Source of the DNA: a virus
Lineage: Duplodnaviria; Caudoviricetes
IMG/VR virus record: IMGVR_UViG_3300020044_006003
Span: 1-30,858 of that record
DNA length: 30,858 nt
Strand: one strand, 5' to 3'
Shown here: in pieces, positions 1-26,560 of the stretch
Layout: every line of letters begins with the position of its first letter
Numbering within the stretch: the first letter of the stretch is position 1
Program-made: the position numbers and the translations under genes
Notes under the pieces: model-generated
The model's database searches: none
Told to the model about the DNA's origin: nothing
Seen by the model: the letters and a program-made list of their open reading frames with translations, nothing else

Positions 1-530
1 GCTTTGGTGCGCTGTGCTTCCACCTTTGGTGCTTCTTTGATGCTCAACTTATCTGCTGCATCCTGCATCGCCTGTTGGATTTGCGGATGTTGGAACATTT
101 CGTAGATGTTGTTGCCTTGTTGCTTATCCTGTTGGATGCGCTCTGTGATTTGTCCGCGTTTGCTCATATACTTTTTGATCCACTCAAAGAACACCTGCCC
201 ATCTATCCGGTTATACAATGGACCAAACTCACCTTTCATTGCCATACGAAAGCATATCTGCAGTTCATCAATGCGCAGGTAGTAGTAATCTTCCATTATC
301 AGTTCAGCTGTTAGTGCTAACTGCATCGGTTGCATAGGTTGTTGCAGGTTAAAGTACTGTTGGCACGCATCCATCATACCAACTAATACACCTACTGCAG
401 CTTGTGGACCTTTTTCATTTTTAATCTGCACTAACATCGGTGAAGTTTTCTGTACCAAAATCGCGTGCAAGCTGGCTTCGGTATTGTTTGCGGAACTCTT
501 CCAGTTCTGTATGGCGTTTTGCTCTTTCAT
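1..530 (-). CDS. Replication-module protein (DUF6633-like, possible helicase loader); partial, runs off the left edge
   Basis: Not in the ORF track. Manual translation from ATG at 530 is open to the window edge: MKEQNAIQNWKSS...ELIMEDYYYLRIDELQICFRMAMKGEFGPLYNRIDGQVFFEWIKKY... It lies directly downstream of the initiator gene and overlaps it by 110 nt. Confidence 0.7.
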   Translation of the reverse strand, partial: MKEQNAIQNWKSSANNTEASLHAILVQKTSPMLVQIKNEKGPQAAVGVLVGMMDACQQYFNLQQPMQPMQLALTAELIMEDYYYLRIDELQICFRMAMKGEFGPLYNRIDGQVFFEWIKKYMSKRGQITERIQQDKQQGNNIYEMFQHPQIQQAMQDAADKLSIKEAPKVEAQRTK

Positions 531-1131
531 CTTGTATTATGTTTTTTGAGTTATTTACTTTTTCAAACTTAGCGTTGTTATTCATCCAGGTACGAATGGC
601 TGCTTCCCAATTTTTCATTTTGTTTTTACCTACCATCCATCCGTTACTTTCGTAATAATTAAAAAATGCCTTTGCTTCTGTAATCACTTTAGCACTATCC
701 CATCTATTACCGGCTAAAGTATTTTTTTCTTTCATATTATTCAAAACTTCATCATATGTAGGAGCGCGAAAGCGCGACCTTGAAACATTATCATTTTGAT
801 TATGATTTACATTCTCATTGACATTTACATTATCATTTACATTTACATTTACATTAGCTTCAACTTTGCTTTTTGTTTGCTTCGGTTTTGCTTCTTGTTT
901 GCTTATTGATTGCTTTACCTTTGCCTTAGTTCCGTTTTCATATCGCTTTAAGTTAGCATCTAATTGGGGTTTGATTAGGGTAAACACAGTCTTAGCTAAT
1001 CCTTTCACTTCTACCTCATTAAAGTTCAATGCATATTCAAAGATTGCAGAATAAACTTTAGATTGTGTTTCTGCATCCAGTTCTTTAATCGCTTCGTAAA
1101 ACGATCTATAAAAGATTGTTGATTCTCTCAT
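421..1131 (-). CDS. Phage replication initiator-like protein (N-terminal DUF6291-like domain)
   Basis: N-terminus FYRSFYEAIKEL...YSAIFEYAL, a central VNVNVN low-complexity linker, a C-terminal FFNYYESNGW..GKNKMKNWEAAIRTW motif, and an internal iteron array. Confidence 0.75.
   Translation of the reverse strand: MRESTIFYRSFYEAIKELDAETQSKVYSAIFEYALNFNEVEVKGLAKTVFTLIKPQLDANLKRYENGTKAKVKQSISKQEAKPKQTKSKVEANVNVNVNDNVNVNENVNHNQNDNVSRSRFRAPTYDEVLNNMKEKNTLAGNRWDSAKVITEAKAFFNYYESNGWMVGKNKMKNWEAAIRTWMNNNAKFEKVNNSKNIIQDERAKRHTELEEFRKQYRSQLARDFGTENFTDVSAD
785..926. repeat. Putative replication origin: 7 x TTTGCTT-like units at 11-bp period (854-926) plus AT-rich 6-mer repeats (785-856)
   Basis: TTTGCTT at 865, 876, 887 and 898, with one-mismatch copies at 854, 909 and 920. 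The adjacent CATTTA/CATTAT hexamer run also lies inside the initiator gene. Confidence 0.65.
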
Positions 1132-1136
1132 AAACT

Positions 1137-1240
1137 AAATACCCACCATCGCATACAATGGACTATCCGCGCACGATTGTGCTATGGCATTGCAGCGATG
1201 ATGGGATTTGTAATGTTTTCATTTACGGATAGTCAGTGCA
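1137..1240 (-). ncRNA. Structured leader RNA, copy 1 (C4/CI-like antisense element), upstream of the initiator gene
   Basis: Stem CCCAUCAUCGC/GCGAUGGUGGG with inner GCAC-AAUC-GUGC hairpin. Loop segment CGGAUAGUC (1169-1161) is complementary to upstream GACUAUCCG (1234-1226). Confidence 0.75.
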
Positions 1241-1247
1241 ATAATAA

Positions 1248-3503
1248 TCAAAATAATGATATCTGTGATTTTTCCTGAACAGCCGATGATATATTTCGCT
1301 TAGCTAAATCATAATAGCTTTCTTTAAGTTCAAAGCCTATACCTTTTCTGCCAAGCTTTACAGATTCATAAACTTCACTGCCAATACCTAAGAATGGAGT
1401 AAACACCGTATCTCCTGGATTTGTCCATAGTTGTATTCCACGATGTATTACATCAAGTTGTAAAGGGCAAATATGCCTCTCATCTTTTTCATTTCTAGCA
1501 GACATGTATTGAAGTGTATTGCCTGGATCTATATCCATCCATACTGGAGATGCATAGCGTTGCCAAATGTCAATAGACAATCTACCTTCCGATTTAAATG
1601 TGCTTTGATCTCCACAAAAATGATCAAACTCGCCTGCAACTGGTTCTAAATTTTCACCAGGCTTCTTCATTGTAACTAAATAATCTGGTATTCCCTGTCT
1701 ACTCATGCAACTATCTTTTGTTACTTGCTTATGTAGTAATCCTATTGCCTTTGTGCGTTGCATGGCTATAACAGGATCCTTCCATATACATACTTCAGAA
1801 TGGTAAGTAAAGCCACACTCTTGAAATAAACGAATAATATCTCCTCTAAAATCTTCTATGCCTATAAAACCATGATGCGACTTTGTAGTTGGCAGATTCA
1901 TGCAGTGTATTGATACATTGCGACCAGGCATTAAAATGCGATATAAATCTTTGACTAAAAACTTAAAATGTTCAAAGAACTCATGGTAGTTTTTAGAATT
2001 TCCCATATCTTCAATGTGATCTGAATAAGTATATAATGAAGCAAATGGTGGACTAAATATCGAATATTGAACACTATTATCTGGTATTGTTTTTATTAAT
2101 TGGCAACTATCGCCACGCTCAATACGATACCATTCATTATTTACTGATTCTGTATCTAAATTAACTTTAGATAGATATTGGTTGTTTAAATTGGCATTTA
2201 TTGCCATACTCATTTGATCTTGCATTTGTTCGAATTGGTTTTGTTTATTATTGATTGATTGTATTACATTCTGCATAGTATCTGTTGTTATCAGATATAT
2301 GTTTACGCTTTTCTTTTGTCCAAATCTATACGACCTACGTATTGCTTGATATAGACCTTCAAAGCTAAAATCTAATGAGGCAAAGATCTGATTACGGCAA
2401 TTTTGATAATTCAAACCAAACTGCGCAATCTTAGTCTTAGTGATTAAAACTCTAAATTCATTATTAGCAAATCCAAGCAGCATTTTCTCTTTATATTCTG
2501 GACTATCGCTTCCTTTTACTTCAACTGCTTCCGGTATCAATTTTCTTAAAAGTTCACCTTCCTCATTTTGTTTAATCCAAATAATAAAGTTTTCACTACT
2601 GTCATTTACTATTGAAACAACCTCATCAATACGTTCTATTTTAGTTAATCTCAACTCTTCATTGAAGTTAGTTGCATTAATAGCAGTATCATTAAATAAA
2701 GATCCATTATTTCTTTTTTCGGTTACAATTTGCCGTTCATAAAGTTCTAACTTAGGTAAATCATAGCCTTTCATTTCAAATCCTATATCTTGTGGCTTAT
2801 TCAACATAATTGCCCATGTACCTACAAACTGATAGAAAAGCTTTATTGCATGACCTTTTAATCTCCATTTAGCAGTTTCACCACCATCATGAATAAAATA
2901 CATACTCAACATTTCAGTGCGTGTCATCACATCGAGAAATTCGCTATGGTTGCCAAGTTCCATTGGATCATTTGGGCTAGGTGTTGCTGTACATGCTAAC
3001 TTATAAGGAGTCTTTTTGAAATACTCTAATATCAGTTTCTTTGTTGATCCTTCAAAGTTTTTTAGAATACTACTTTCATCTAATGCAATACCTGAAAAAA
3101 TAGAGCAGTCAATATCATCCAGTTGTTCATAGTTGGTAATCCAAATTCGCGGAATGCCCTCATGGTATTCATTAGATATTGCATTCTTATTTCCTTTCCA
3201 TTTCCATACTTTAATCTTAAACTTTTCACCTTCTTTAATAGTTTGACCAGCAACAGCTAATGGTGCAAGAATTAATACTGGCTTGTTTGTATGCTTTACT
3301 ACTTGATTTGCCCACTCTAATTGCATTAAAGTTTTACCCAATCCGCAATCTGCAAAAATTGCATACTTGCCTGCATTCAATGCACGCTTAACAATGAACT
3401 TTTGAAAATCAAATAACTTAGGGTTAAGTTGTAAATCTTGAATTATAAATCCACTTTTAACATGAGACTTGACTTTAGCCTCTAAAAAATTTAAATATTC
3501 CAT
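1248..3503 (-). CDS. SNF2-like helicase fused to a beta-class N4/N6 DNA methyltransferase
   Basis: Walker A ADCGLGKT, Walker B DESS, TATP and QAIRRSYRFGQ helicase motifs. In the C-terminal part FSPPF (motif IV) precedes PFLGIGS (motif I). Start moved to ATG 3503 because the track start at 3524 lies inside the RNA stem. Confidence 0.9.
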   Translation of the reverse strand: MEYLNFLEAKVKSHVKSGFIIQDLQLNPKLFDFQKFIVKRALNAGKYAIFADCGLGKTLMQLEWANQVVKHTNKPVLILAPLAVAGQTIKEGEKFKIKVWKWKGNKNAISNEYHEGIPRIWITNYEQLDDIDCSIFSGIALDESSILKNFEGSTKKLILEYFKKTPYKLACTATPSPNDPMELGNHSEFLDVMTRTEMLSMYFIHDGGETAKWRLKGHAIKLFYQFVGTWAIMLNKPQDIGFEMKGYDLPKLELYERQIVTEKRNNGSLFNDTAINATNFNEELRLTKIERIDEVVSIVNDSSENFIIWIKQNEEGELLRKLIPEAVEVKGSDSPEYKEKMLLGFANNEFRVLITKTKIAQFGLNYQNCRNQIFASLDFSFEGLYQAIRRSYRFGQKKSVNIYLITTDTMQNVIQSINNKQNQFEQMQDQMSMAINANLNNQYLSKVNLDTESVNNEWYRIERGDSCQLIKTIPDNSVQYSIFSPPFASLYTYSDHIEDMGNSKNYHEFFEHFKFLVKDLYRILMPGRNVSIHCMNLPTTKSHHGFIGIEDFRGDIIRLFQECGFTYHSEVCIWKDPVIAMQRTKAIGLLHKQVTKDSCMSRQGIPDYLVTMKKPGENLEPVAGEFDHFCGDQSTFKSEGRLSIDIWQRYASPVWMDIDPGNTLQYMSARNEKDERHICPLQLDVIHRGIQLWTNPGDTVFTPFLGIGSEVYESVKLGRKGIGFELKESYYDLAKRNISSAVQEKSQISLF

Positions 3504-3510
3504 TTGATTT

Positions 3511-3612
3511 AAAATACCCACCACTACACGTAAAGGCTCGTCCGCGCACGAAAGTGCTATGGCAATACGGCAGTGATGGGATTTAAAATGTTTTTCATTC
3601 GAACGAGCAATG
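3511..3612 (-). ncRNA. Structured leader RNA, copy 2, upstream of the helicase-methylase gene
   Basis: Stem CCCAUCACUGC/GUAGUGGUGGG with GCAC-UUUC-GUGC hairpin. Loop CGGACGAGC (3544-3536) is complementary to upstream GCUCGUUCG (3608-3600). It covaries with copy 1. Confidence 0.75.
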
Positions 3613-3643
3613 CAAAGATAGTCAAACTATCCTTACTTCCAAA
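3613..3643 (-). promoter_or_regulatory. Bacteroidota housekeeping-type promoter
   Basis: TTTG (3643-3640), N19, TATCTTTG (3620-3613): an exact match to the -33/-7 consensus. Confidence 0.75.
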
Positions 3644-4055
3644 TTAATGTGATGAAACCTGCGGCTACCATACCGGCAAAGAAGGCAATCACAATATCCA
3701 TTAGTGGGTATGGTGTATGTGTGCTGTCTATGTTCACAGGTTGTGGTGCTACATACTCAACTTTCTTGAGTGGTTTAATGATCATCTGTTGCGTACCTGC
3801 CTTGCTTTGTGAATTACAAATACGTGATTGCTTCAAACATTCCTTTGTGAAAGCATTTGCAATAGCTTGTGTCGGCTTATCACCTATCCAGTGTGTTATG
3901 CTACCATCACGCTTTATCATTTGATTTTCACGCATCAGTGTGATTAGTCGTGTACTAACCCTATAATCACGCTGCATTTCTTTAATGTCAAATTCCTTCA
4001 TGTCATAAAGTGTACACATGAATTGATAGTACTTCGTTTTTGTGTTCTTACTCAT
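3633..4055 (-). CDS. Hypothetical protein with C-terminal transmembrane segment
   Basis: 140 aa ending IVIAFFAGMVAAGFITLIWK; ATGA-coupled to the upstream gene. Confidence 0.7.
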   Translation of the reverse strand: MSKNTKTKYYQFMCTLYDMKEFDIKEMQRDYRVSTRLITLMRENQMIKRDGSITHWIGDKPTQAIANAFTKECLKQSRICNSQSKAGTQQMIIKPLKKVEYVAPQPVNIDSTHTPYPLMDIVIAFFAGMVAAGFITLIWK

Positions 4056-4414: not shown

Positions 4415-5015
4415 AGTAGTCTACCATATTACGCATTGCACACCAAAATTTACCGATGTAATCACCATCTGCTACTATCTGTACCACAGGTACATCATTG
4501 CGCAGGTGCAAGTATTCCCATTCAGACATTGAATGTACATCGTAATCACATCCCATTGATGAAGGGGCATACTGCAATTGATTGCGATCTACTGGAGTAT
4601 CAAAATGCACAATGTAATGTGCAGTGCCATTGATTGTACACATGAAGTAGGTACGATGCTCATTGACTAACCTGCGCTTCACTATGTAGATGTTCTTGCC
4701 ATATAGCTGCTTCACATCATGTATATCGTACTCACTTGACATTTCAGCATCAAAGCTTTCATGCATCTCTAAGAAGTTAAGGTTCTGCTCTATTTCGCGC
4801 CACCTTTTTTCCTTATCATCACTACCCAGTAACAACTTCATCCAACTTAGCAATGTATCATCATTGATGCGCAGTTGCTTTCTGATATCCTGAAACGGCA
4901 TTGAGTTAAAGTGCTTCATGATAAACAGAATATCATTGCGGTTAGGTAGTTTGTGATTGCGCAGTATGGGTTTGATAGTGGCCCTTCGTACTTTATTTCT
5001 ATTCATCACCTTCAT
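4404..5015 (-). CDS. Hypothetical protein
   Basis: 203-aa ORF overlapping its neighbours in the minus-strand operon. Confidence 0.65.
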   Translation of the reverse strand: MKVMNRNKVRRATIKPILRNHKLPNRNDILFIMKHFNSMPFQDIRKQLRINDDTLLSWMKLLLGSDDKEKRWREIEQNLNFLEMHESFDAEMSSEYDIHDVKQLYGKNIYIVKRRLVNEHRTYFMCTINGTAHYIVHFDTPVDRNQLQYAPSSMGCDYDVHSMSEWEYLHLRNDVPVVQIVADGDYIGKFWCAMRNMVDYYEA

Positions 5016-5235
5016 TTTTGATAGTTATTGATTGGATTAGTTCGCAAATAGGTATTTCCATAGCCTTAGATAAGTTGACTAATTGGGCAACTTTTATGGT
5101 GCGTGAATCTTCACACCAATTGTAGATGGTTTTTAGAGTTACCGGTGTATTGCTTCTTTGCATCGCACGCAGTAGGGCAGATTTACTGCCCATCGTGCGT
5201 GTGATTAGTTTACTAAATCTGTCGTTGCGTCTCAT
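4999..5235 (-). CDS. XRE/Cro-like helix-turn-helix regulator
   Basis: 78 aa with the pattern VTLKTIYNW...IKVAQLVNLSKAMEIPICELI. Confidence 0.7.
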   Translation of the reverse strand: MRRNDRFSKLITRTMGSKSALLRAMQRSNTPVTLKTIYNWCEDSRTIKVAQLVNLSKAMEIPICELIQSITIKNEGDE

Positions 5236-5872: not shown

Positions 5873-5903
5873 CAAATGTATGCAAGATTTTACAATATGC
5901 AAA
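5873..5903 (-). promoter_or_regulatory. Leftward early promoter (Bacteroidota consensus)
   Basis: TTTG (5903-5900), N19, TACATTTG (5880-5873). Confidence 0.75.
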
Positions 5904-26545: not shown

Positions 26546-26560
26546 TGCAAATATAGCACG

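Follow-up and report, generated by a model that had tools for sequence, protein, structure and literature searches.

C4 RNAs of P1 and P7 act on a and b target sites, with a2 and b2 lying downstream, and exist in variants that differ in specificity. Both P4 CI (seqA-seqC) and P1/P7 C4 (RF01695) carry a promoter, a target, and a stem-enclosed antisense segment in the same transcript (PMC4825925, PMC3632133, PMC5499578, PMC2864571), and C4/P4 CI-type RNAs are noted as substrates of RNase P (PMC5499578). We analyzed a leader element with this arrangement that occurs twice, on the minus strand, in a 30.9-kb virus record (IMG/VR IMGVR_UViG_3300020044_006003, Caudoviricetes; 30,858 nucleotides [nt]), the whole of which is here called the window. 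Judged from sequence, the element is a real, strongly covarying RNA family, and it is apparently uncatalogued. Its order of parts is kept: a -7 promoter box, a target, an upstream open reading frame (uORF) beginning AUGAAAA, a long stem of about 16 bp (stem P1) with a guide in its loop, and a U-rich tail, with P1 ending 10–15 nt upstream of the next gene. We lean, by a modest degree, toward reading it as a portable promoter plus leader RNA in which the guide is complementary to the predicted first 9–12 bases of its own transcript and in which pairing of the two would lock the next gene off.

Homologues and covariation of the leader RNA

The first-pass annotation of the window had placed two diverged minus-strand copies of one element at 1137–1240 and 3511–3612. 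Both are found there by a covariance model (99.6 and 83.7 bits) whose training set included them, and the model found no third copy in the window; the -7 boxes sit just beyond those bounds, at 1246–1239 for copy 1 and 3620–3613 for copy 2. The target of copy 1 (1234–1225) pairs with its guide (1170–1161) through nine Watson-Crick pairs and one G-U pair, and that of copy 2 (3608–3600) pairs with its guide (3544–3536) through eight and one. Just 5 and 3 of 61,698 window 9-mers could pair at nine of nine positions with the guides of copies 1 and 2, respectively. The element cores have folding z scores of -5.1 and -4.0, and the full elements fold better on the minus strand (-3.1 and -2.2) than on the plus strand (-1.8 and -1.5). 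Changes in the outer stem between copies are as the annotation described, but the stem is longer than the short one it drew, at about 16 bp, and reaches a G-C pair beside the guide.

Pattern and protein-led scans yielded 128 distinct elements, which fall into 24 clusters at 75% identity, and addition of metagenome loci brought the total to 145 distinct elements with 52 guide-target types, in phage-like contigs. Both sets were prefiltered for pairing and are descriptive only. The unbiased test used a pattern in which neither the target nor the guide is specified, and the start was set at 4 nt past the -7 box. In the viral set, 98 of 102 distinct stretches had a box, and 91 of these 98 paired at all eight positions compared with 9.5% in a cross-pair control. 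The metagenome set, which overlaps the viral one in part, had 114 stretches, 50 with a box, and 36 of the 50 paired at all eight (4.2% in the control). Bacterial genomes, in a scan that covered 23 of 64 parts, gave 119 parsed pattern stretches, of which seven had a box and none paired. Among elements located solely via the initiator protein, all 35 distinct ones pair over at least 8 bp.

Covariation of guide and target, as first proposed from the two copies, is thus borne out by the start-fixed test, and an alignment of 49 sequences agrees. There, 99.5% of guide-target cells are paired and both sides change in seven of nine pairs; for P1, 80% of cells are paired and both sides change in 15 of 16 pairs (slid controls, 38–50%). 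Covariation of P1 and of the inner hairpin is also seen in a further alignment analysis. In guide-target pairs, G-U outnumbers A-C by 67:3 in the viral set and 29:1 in the metagenome set, indicating that pairing occurs on the minus strand, the only strand that the wobbles had been said to fit. The proposed specificity is supported as well, with noncognate duplexes coming within 2 kcal/mol of the cognate in only 2.8% of comparisons. It is barely conceivable that the element is a chance repeat or a DNA-level structure such as an origin or recombination site. Copies do often lie beside replication genes and at borders of exchanged gene modules, but the strand-specific use of G-U, the fixed phase to the promoter box, the covariation, and the many copies far from replication genes all argue otherwise.

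No Rfam family fits the element. Searches with the window at gathering scores, the elements at E ≤ 10, 20 homologous loci at E ≤ 5, and 4 more at E ≤ 2 returned no match to it. A blastn search with copy 2 had no match among isolated phages and PLSDB plasmids, and no element lies near the initiator homologues of Riemerella and Porphyromonas phages. One bacterial element was found, in a freshwater Bacteroidetes metagenome-assembled genome (MAG), where it is cut at the contig start and lies upstream of an HNH-like gene. None was found beyond the centre MAG in 150 + 150 sampled bacterial genomes, a scan of limited sensitivity with 25 candidates scored per genome. The literature searched held no description; seven of nine supplementary files of PMC10690425 are blank for the motif, and an unnamed listing could be present in its files 1–2 or in the supplement of PMC5737381. 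One candidate (L610) was dropped as a false positive because it has no -7 box, and the first loose pattern also matched tRNA-like sequences in three unrelated viral contigs (L036, L103, and L105).

Anatomy of the element and its proposed action

In 125 of the 127 elements with a -7 box, the target G is 4 nt past the box. The Flavobacterium -7 box occupies -12 to -5 (PMC9723704; PMC6847099), so the target is the predicted 5′ end of the transcript. Copy 2 has an exact TAnnTTTG box at this spacing, placing the G of its target at the predicted +1; the box of copy 1 has one mismatch, overlaps the region just past the stop of the upstream helicase-methylase gene, and likewise places its target at +1. 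A target at the very 5′ end is what would be expected if pairing mainly shielded the 5′ triphosphate end or set a cleavage site, and thereby acted on RNA stability instead of translation. We hold this to be very improbable, as it leaves unexplained both the invariant AUGAAAA abutting the helix and a P1 that ends just before the next start codon.

The guide-target helix is 8–12 bp, never longer, and ends no more than 2 nt from the uORF AUG in 134 of 145 elements. AUGAAAA is retained in all 145, partly by selection of the set. The uORF itself uses all three frames, spans 4 to over 30 codons, and varies in peptide, with 73 of 128 stopping directly after the loop CCA. A conserved leader peptide was rejected on these grounds, and the constancy of AUGAAAA amid such variation suggests that initiation matters and the peptide does not. 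The uORF of copy 2 (3557–3598) has 13 codons and stops directly after the loop CCA; that of copy 1 (1163–1222) has 19 codons in a different frame and stops within the guide.

Folding and covariation place the 5′ and 3′ arms of P1 at 3563–3580 and 3517–3535 in copy 2, and folding places them at 1188–1205 and 1142–1160 in copy 1. P1 encloses 63–65 nt in 112 of 128 elements, and at least five U fall within 8 nt past it in 124 of 128. The loop holds an inner hairpin (3546–3557 in copy 2, where it is GCAC-N4-GUGC; 1171–1182 by folding in copy 1) that covaries and differs in stem and loop length among distant members. The U-rich tail (3509–3516 in copy 2 and 1134–1141 in copy 1) is terminator-like and would offer the next gene an unfavorable context for starting; U makes up 66% of the 10 nt ahead of gated genes, compared with 27% U and 45% A before 31 other window genes. 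The annotation had singled out CCAUA in the loop and proposed that a conserved CAU pairs with the uORF AUG. The CC is invariant, but the U varies (GCCAA in 16 of 24 lineages and GCCAU in 6 of 24), and CAU is kept in only those 6, so the proposed pairing does not hold. Folding instead predicts that CC (3561–3562 in copy 2 and 1186–1187 in copy 1) latches onto a GG of the guide (3543–3542 and 1168–1167). This GG, at pairs 6–8, is kept in all 52 guide types, the target there tolerates C or U, and 138 of 145 free RNAs are predicted to form the CC-GG pairing, in which the variable 3′ part of the guide stays accessible.

These parts suggest how a leader might lock itself. RNA polymerase would begin at the G of the target. 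A ribosome that loads on the uORF would meet the 5′ arm of P1 and open the stem, which would both free the next gene start and keep transcription from terminating at the U-tract. As long as the RNA is free, the guide GG would be held by the invariant CC, with a seed of 5–6 nt left exposed. The free 5′ end would then thread into the guide loop, and because the helix would reach the uORF AUG, ribosome loading would stop. P1 would stay shut, with the next start hidden, termination at the U-tract possible, and the next gene off. Each transcript would thus have a short window of expression and then lock in cis, and such brief expression would suit genes needed in small amounts, such as those for initiators, homing endonucleases, and methylases.

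Geometry and energetics are consistent with this sequence of events. Threading into a closed loop would be in keeping with the free 5′ end and with a helix length of about one turn. In modeling, it costs on average 14.9 kcal/mol to open the downstream start region when P1 is shut and 7.6 kcal/mol when a ribosome sits on the 5′ arm, and the gap is at least 3 kcal/mol in 107 of 127 elements. Initiation in Bacteroidota depends on low structure around the start codon (PMC6847099); a guide paired with the 5′ end would therefore be predicted to block the uORF ribosome. A lock in cis would probably be hard to avoid physically. Precedents for such control are known: I-complex and IncL/M plasmids make initiator translation depend on a leader ORF, and hairpins restrain the translation of T4-type homing endonucleases.

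Several points nevertheless weigh against a self-locking leader. We infer the function of the element from its sequence, and the sign of the switch (pairing as off) from its geometry. The uORF has only four codons in two copies (L199 and L205) and is fused in frame to the next gene in three; its upstream context is C-rich and lacks the A at -3 or -6 that favors initiation in Bacteroidota, so it may be weakly translated. A simple terminator scan, limited to loops of 3–8 nt, called neither window stem. Because CC and GG are both invariant, the latch draws no support from covariation. Six more distant relatives have the initiator joined to an exonuclease gene without an element, and three close relatives (L209, L210, and L215) have no element at all, the stop of their VRR-NUC gene overlapping the initiator AUG; the element is therefore dispensable. 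Lastly, in a close group of 94 members, double transversions occur in six of nine guide-target pairs and in 1 of 15 P1 pairs. Together with guide types that are reassorted and orthogonal, this points to selection for new specificities, which would be expected if guides also act in trans.

The element could therefore be a trans repressor of the C4/CI kind, in which the stem-enclosed RNA of about 64 nt is excised from terminated transcripts, accumulates, and binds new 5′ ends of the same type. Such an RNA would give negative feedback on the gated gene and exclude co-infecting phages with the same guide, and it is compatible with a lock in cis. We consider this possible, if doubtful. Besides the double transversions and orthogonality, it would account for the finding that 94 near-identical elements carry 15 guide types, which are reassorted among more than 20 downstream gene starts, and for a predicted latch that leaves the most variable positions exposed as a seed. 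The constant length enclosed by P1, followed by a U-rich tail, also fits, and the transcript from which P4 CI is processed likewise contains the upstream target of P4 CI (PMC4825925). However, no second target was found in the 400 nt downstream of 45 elements or elsewhere in the window; own and other guides score similarly downstream (means of -9.7 and -8.9 kcal/mol) and in an upstream control (-9.6 and -8.8 kcal/mol). No processing signal was identified. The setting of prophage immunity first imagined for the element is not supported either: no tyrosine integrase occurs in nine of nine carriers that are at least 90% complete (one of ten overall has one), no serine recombinase occurs in five of five, and these scans and that of bacterial genomes weigh against lysogeny by integration.

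More speculatively still, non-integrating Bacteroidota phages may carry a swappable RNA lock and key of at least 52 types, in which released guides silence the initiator or homing endonuclease of a co-infecting phage with the same key. This would amount to kin-specific incompatibility outside lysogeny, with escape driving diversification of the seed.

It is unlikely that the guide-target helix instead activates expression, either by forming first and hindering closure of P1, as an antiterminator or activating pseudoknot would, or through short RNAs that unlock the mRNA in trans like IsrK. The guide is transcribed ahead of the 3′ arm of P1, activating pseudoknots before initiators are established for ColIb-P9/IncL-M plasmids, and the short RNA IsrK activates its own long mRNA via a uORF. 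But the guide is in the loop and not in an arm of P1, which means that the two helices draw on different bases; P1 (median of -29.5 kcal/mol) is far stronger than the guide-target duplex (mean of -12.8 kcal/mol), and the helix covers the uORF start region.

Gated genes, setting, and spread

The self-locking reading applies to two genes in the window. Copy 1 precedes a gene (421–1131, minus strand, AUG at 1131) for a 236-amino acid DUF6291 protein (PF19808, E = 1e-19). It is likely a replication initiator, judging by residues 118–202, which match an annotated phage replication initiation protein (E = 4e-8); at another locus (L697), a DUF6291 homologue is followed by DnaB. Copy 2 precedes a gene (1248–3503, minus strand, AUG at 3503) for a 751-amino acid SNF2-type helicase fused to an N6/N4 DNA methylase. 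The annotation proposed that the element gates these two genes, and for the window copies the positions are right, but a specificity for replication genes is not upheld. The first downstream gene encodes an HNH, NUMOD, or GIY-YIG endonuclease-type protein in some member of 13 of 24 clusters and is initiator-like (DUF6291, DUF1376, or Lin1244_N) in 6 of 24, with 3 more having a replication gene second. The element lies directly upstream in 4 of 80 helicase-methylase homologue loci and occurs in 49 of 64 initiator loci. With homing endonucleases the commonest first gene by lineage and helicase-methylases so rarely preceded, the element is not replication-specific. In one contig (L826:1480–1600), a full element precedes a gene for a secreted-looking protein of 261 amino acids, unlike the usual DNA-acting genes, and a head-protease-like gene is near.

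As an expression module, the element is accessory and portable, and it does not form a fixed component of replication control. Near-identical elements occur at different sites in related phages (L716 and L725; L695 and L385). Unrelated ORFs of 56–119 amino acids without Pfam matches stand between element and initiator in several contigs (L243, L170, L241, L753, and others), making the site a hot spot for insertions. The 140-amino acid gene at 3633–4055 of the window is, like the element, absent from L209, L210, and L215. Ten other carriers have one copy each, and four two-copy contigs (three combinations) have copies with different guides. We considered such differences as a sign of action in trans and rejected them as uninformative, since two copies drawn at random would have the same type in only 11% of cases.

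Variant leaders were also seen. In L192:3240–3320 and L253, which are the same contig, a helicase-methylase gene lies after the VRR-NUC gene without any leader, and from its 3′ end the frame continues into the 3′ half of an element and the initiator gene; either promoter, target, uORF, and 5′ arm were deleted here, or the junction is an assembly chimera. In L264:1882–2000, a variant from another lineage precedes a helicase-methylase gene. Its target is displaced by 5 nt from the predicted start and occupies the loop of a 4-bp hairpin, an arrangement suggestive of loop-loop pairing. A different leader precedes a DUF6291 gene in L232:3897–4000, with a -7 box and U-tract, no AUGAAAA uORF, and a 6-nt word at the predicted start whose complement is within a long stem. 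It is possibly a second class with the same logic, and a search with this leader type found only itself. The same contig has an Rfam DUF805b match above gathering score at 3087–3119, unrelated to the element.

The window also has genes for a portal, tape measure, endolysin, and exonuclease. No integrase was found among the 38–40 window ORFs scanned, and with both ends open, the record is incomplete. Its phage probably infects Bacteroidota, given the TAnnTTTG boxes, the initiator homologues in Riemerella and Porphyromonas phages, and the one element in a Bacteroidetes MAG. Three more exact TAnnTTTG boxes are on the minus strand, at 5880, 26555, and 30385. The first heads an early operon that reads through both elements, so its long transcripts would bear the targets without a free 5′ end; the box at 26555 is directed antisense into a phosphoesterase gene. 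At 4999–5235 (minus strand), a 78-amino acid ORF kept in relatives has, by eye, the look of a Cro-type helix-turn-helix protein and no Pfam or PHROG match.

Significance and comparison with described systems

The element adds a well-supported RNA family without an Rfam entry to a group of phages in which almost no RNA regulation has been described. It shows how pairing at the extreme 5′ end of an mRNA could switch a ribosome that ignores Shine-Dalgarno sequences. A single module of about 100 nt is put to use ahead of initiator, homing endonuclease, and methylase genes alike. Should guides act in trans, RNA-based incompatibility would reach phages that have no integrase. With 52 natural guide-target pairs, most of them orthogonal, the choice between action in cis and in trans can be tested directly, and the pairs could find use as orthogonal switches in Bacteroidota.

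Hairpins of T4-type homing endonuclease genes (I-TevI, segB, and mobE) resemble the element in that a stable stem covers or adjoins the start region of an HNH or GIY-YIG gene, as described for those hairpins (PMC2988022) and as computed here for the element. Those hairpins are relieved by a late promoter inside the hairpin; the element has an upstream promoter, a uORF, and a covarying guide. Replication control in I-complex and IncL/M plasmids (repB/repY leader peptide, pseudoknot, and RNAI) shares translation of a leader ORF, long-range pairing, and specificity through pairing of a short RNA (PMC8125031, PMC10286972), and a leader ORF upstream of a replication initiator is present for copy 1 and in 6 of 24 lineages. 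But the plasmid antisense RNA is separate and the pseudoknot activates, whereas guide and target here are on one strand of one transcript and their pairing covers the uORF start. On the strand opposite the window elements, no TAnnTTTG box faces either one, in a search confined to this promoter type. The geometry suggests the opposite sign, and no PLSDB plasmid matched. IsrK of Gifsy-1 (seqA-like), likewise a leader RNA, pairs with its own mRNA and acts via a uORF with an unconserved peptide (PMC4825925). Unlike the element, which has no Rfam match, IsrK activates in trans, precedes an antirepressor, and differs in architecture.

The closest likeness drawn at the outset was to C4 and CI, and one part of it stands: target and antisense are in one transcript. 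An Rfam score, a second target, and a second pairing segment are absent; in place of the two pairing loop segments of C4/CI there is one guide, with the invariant CC predicted to pair with that guide, and one target at the very 5′ end with none downstream. The element has one inner hairpin, and rows of the C4 alignment show two when read by eye (PMC2864571). Its carriers are Bacteroidota phages, mostly without an integrase, whereas RF01695 is listed for Proteobacteria and phages (PMC2864571). Like P4 CI and C4, the element has short pairing, many specificity variants, and a downstream gene that, by our reading, would be kept off. It works like C4/CI but is not a member, and it is a new variant of leader-antisense control.

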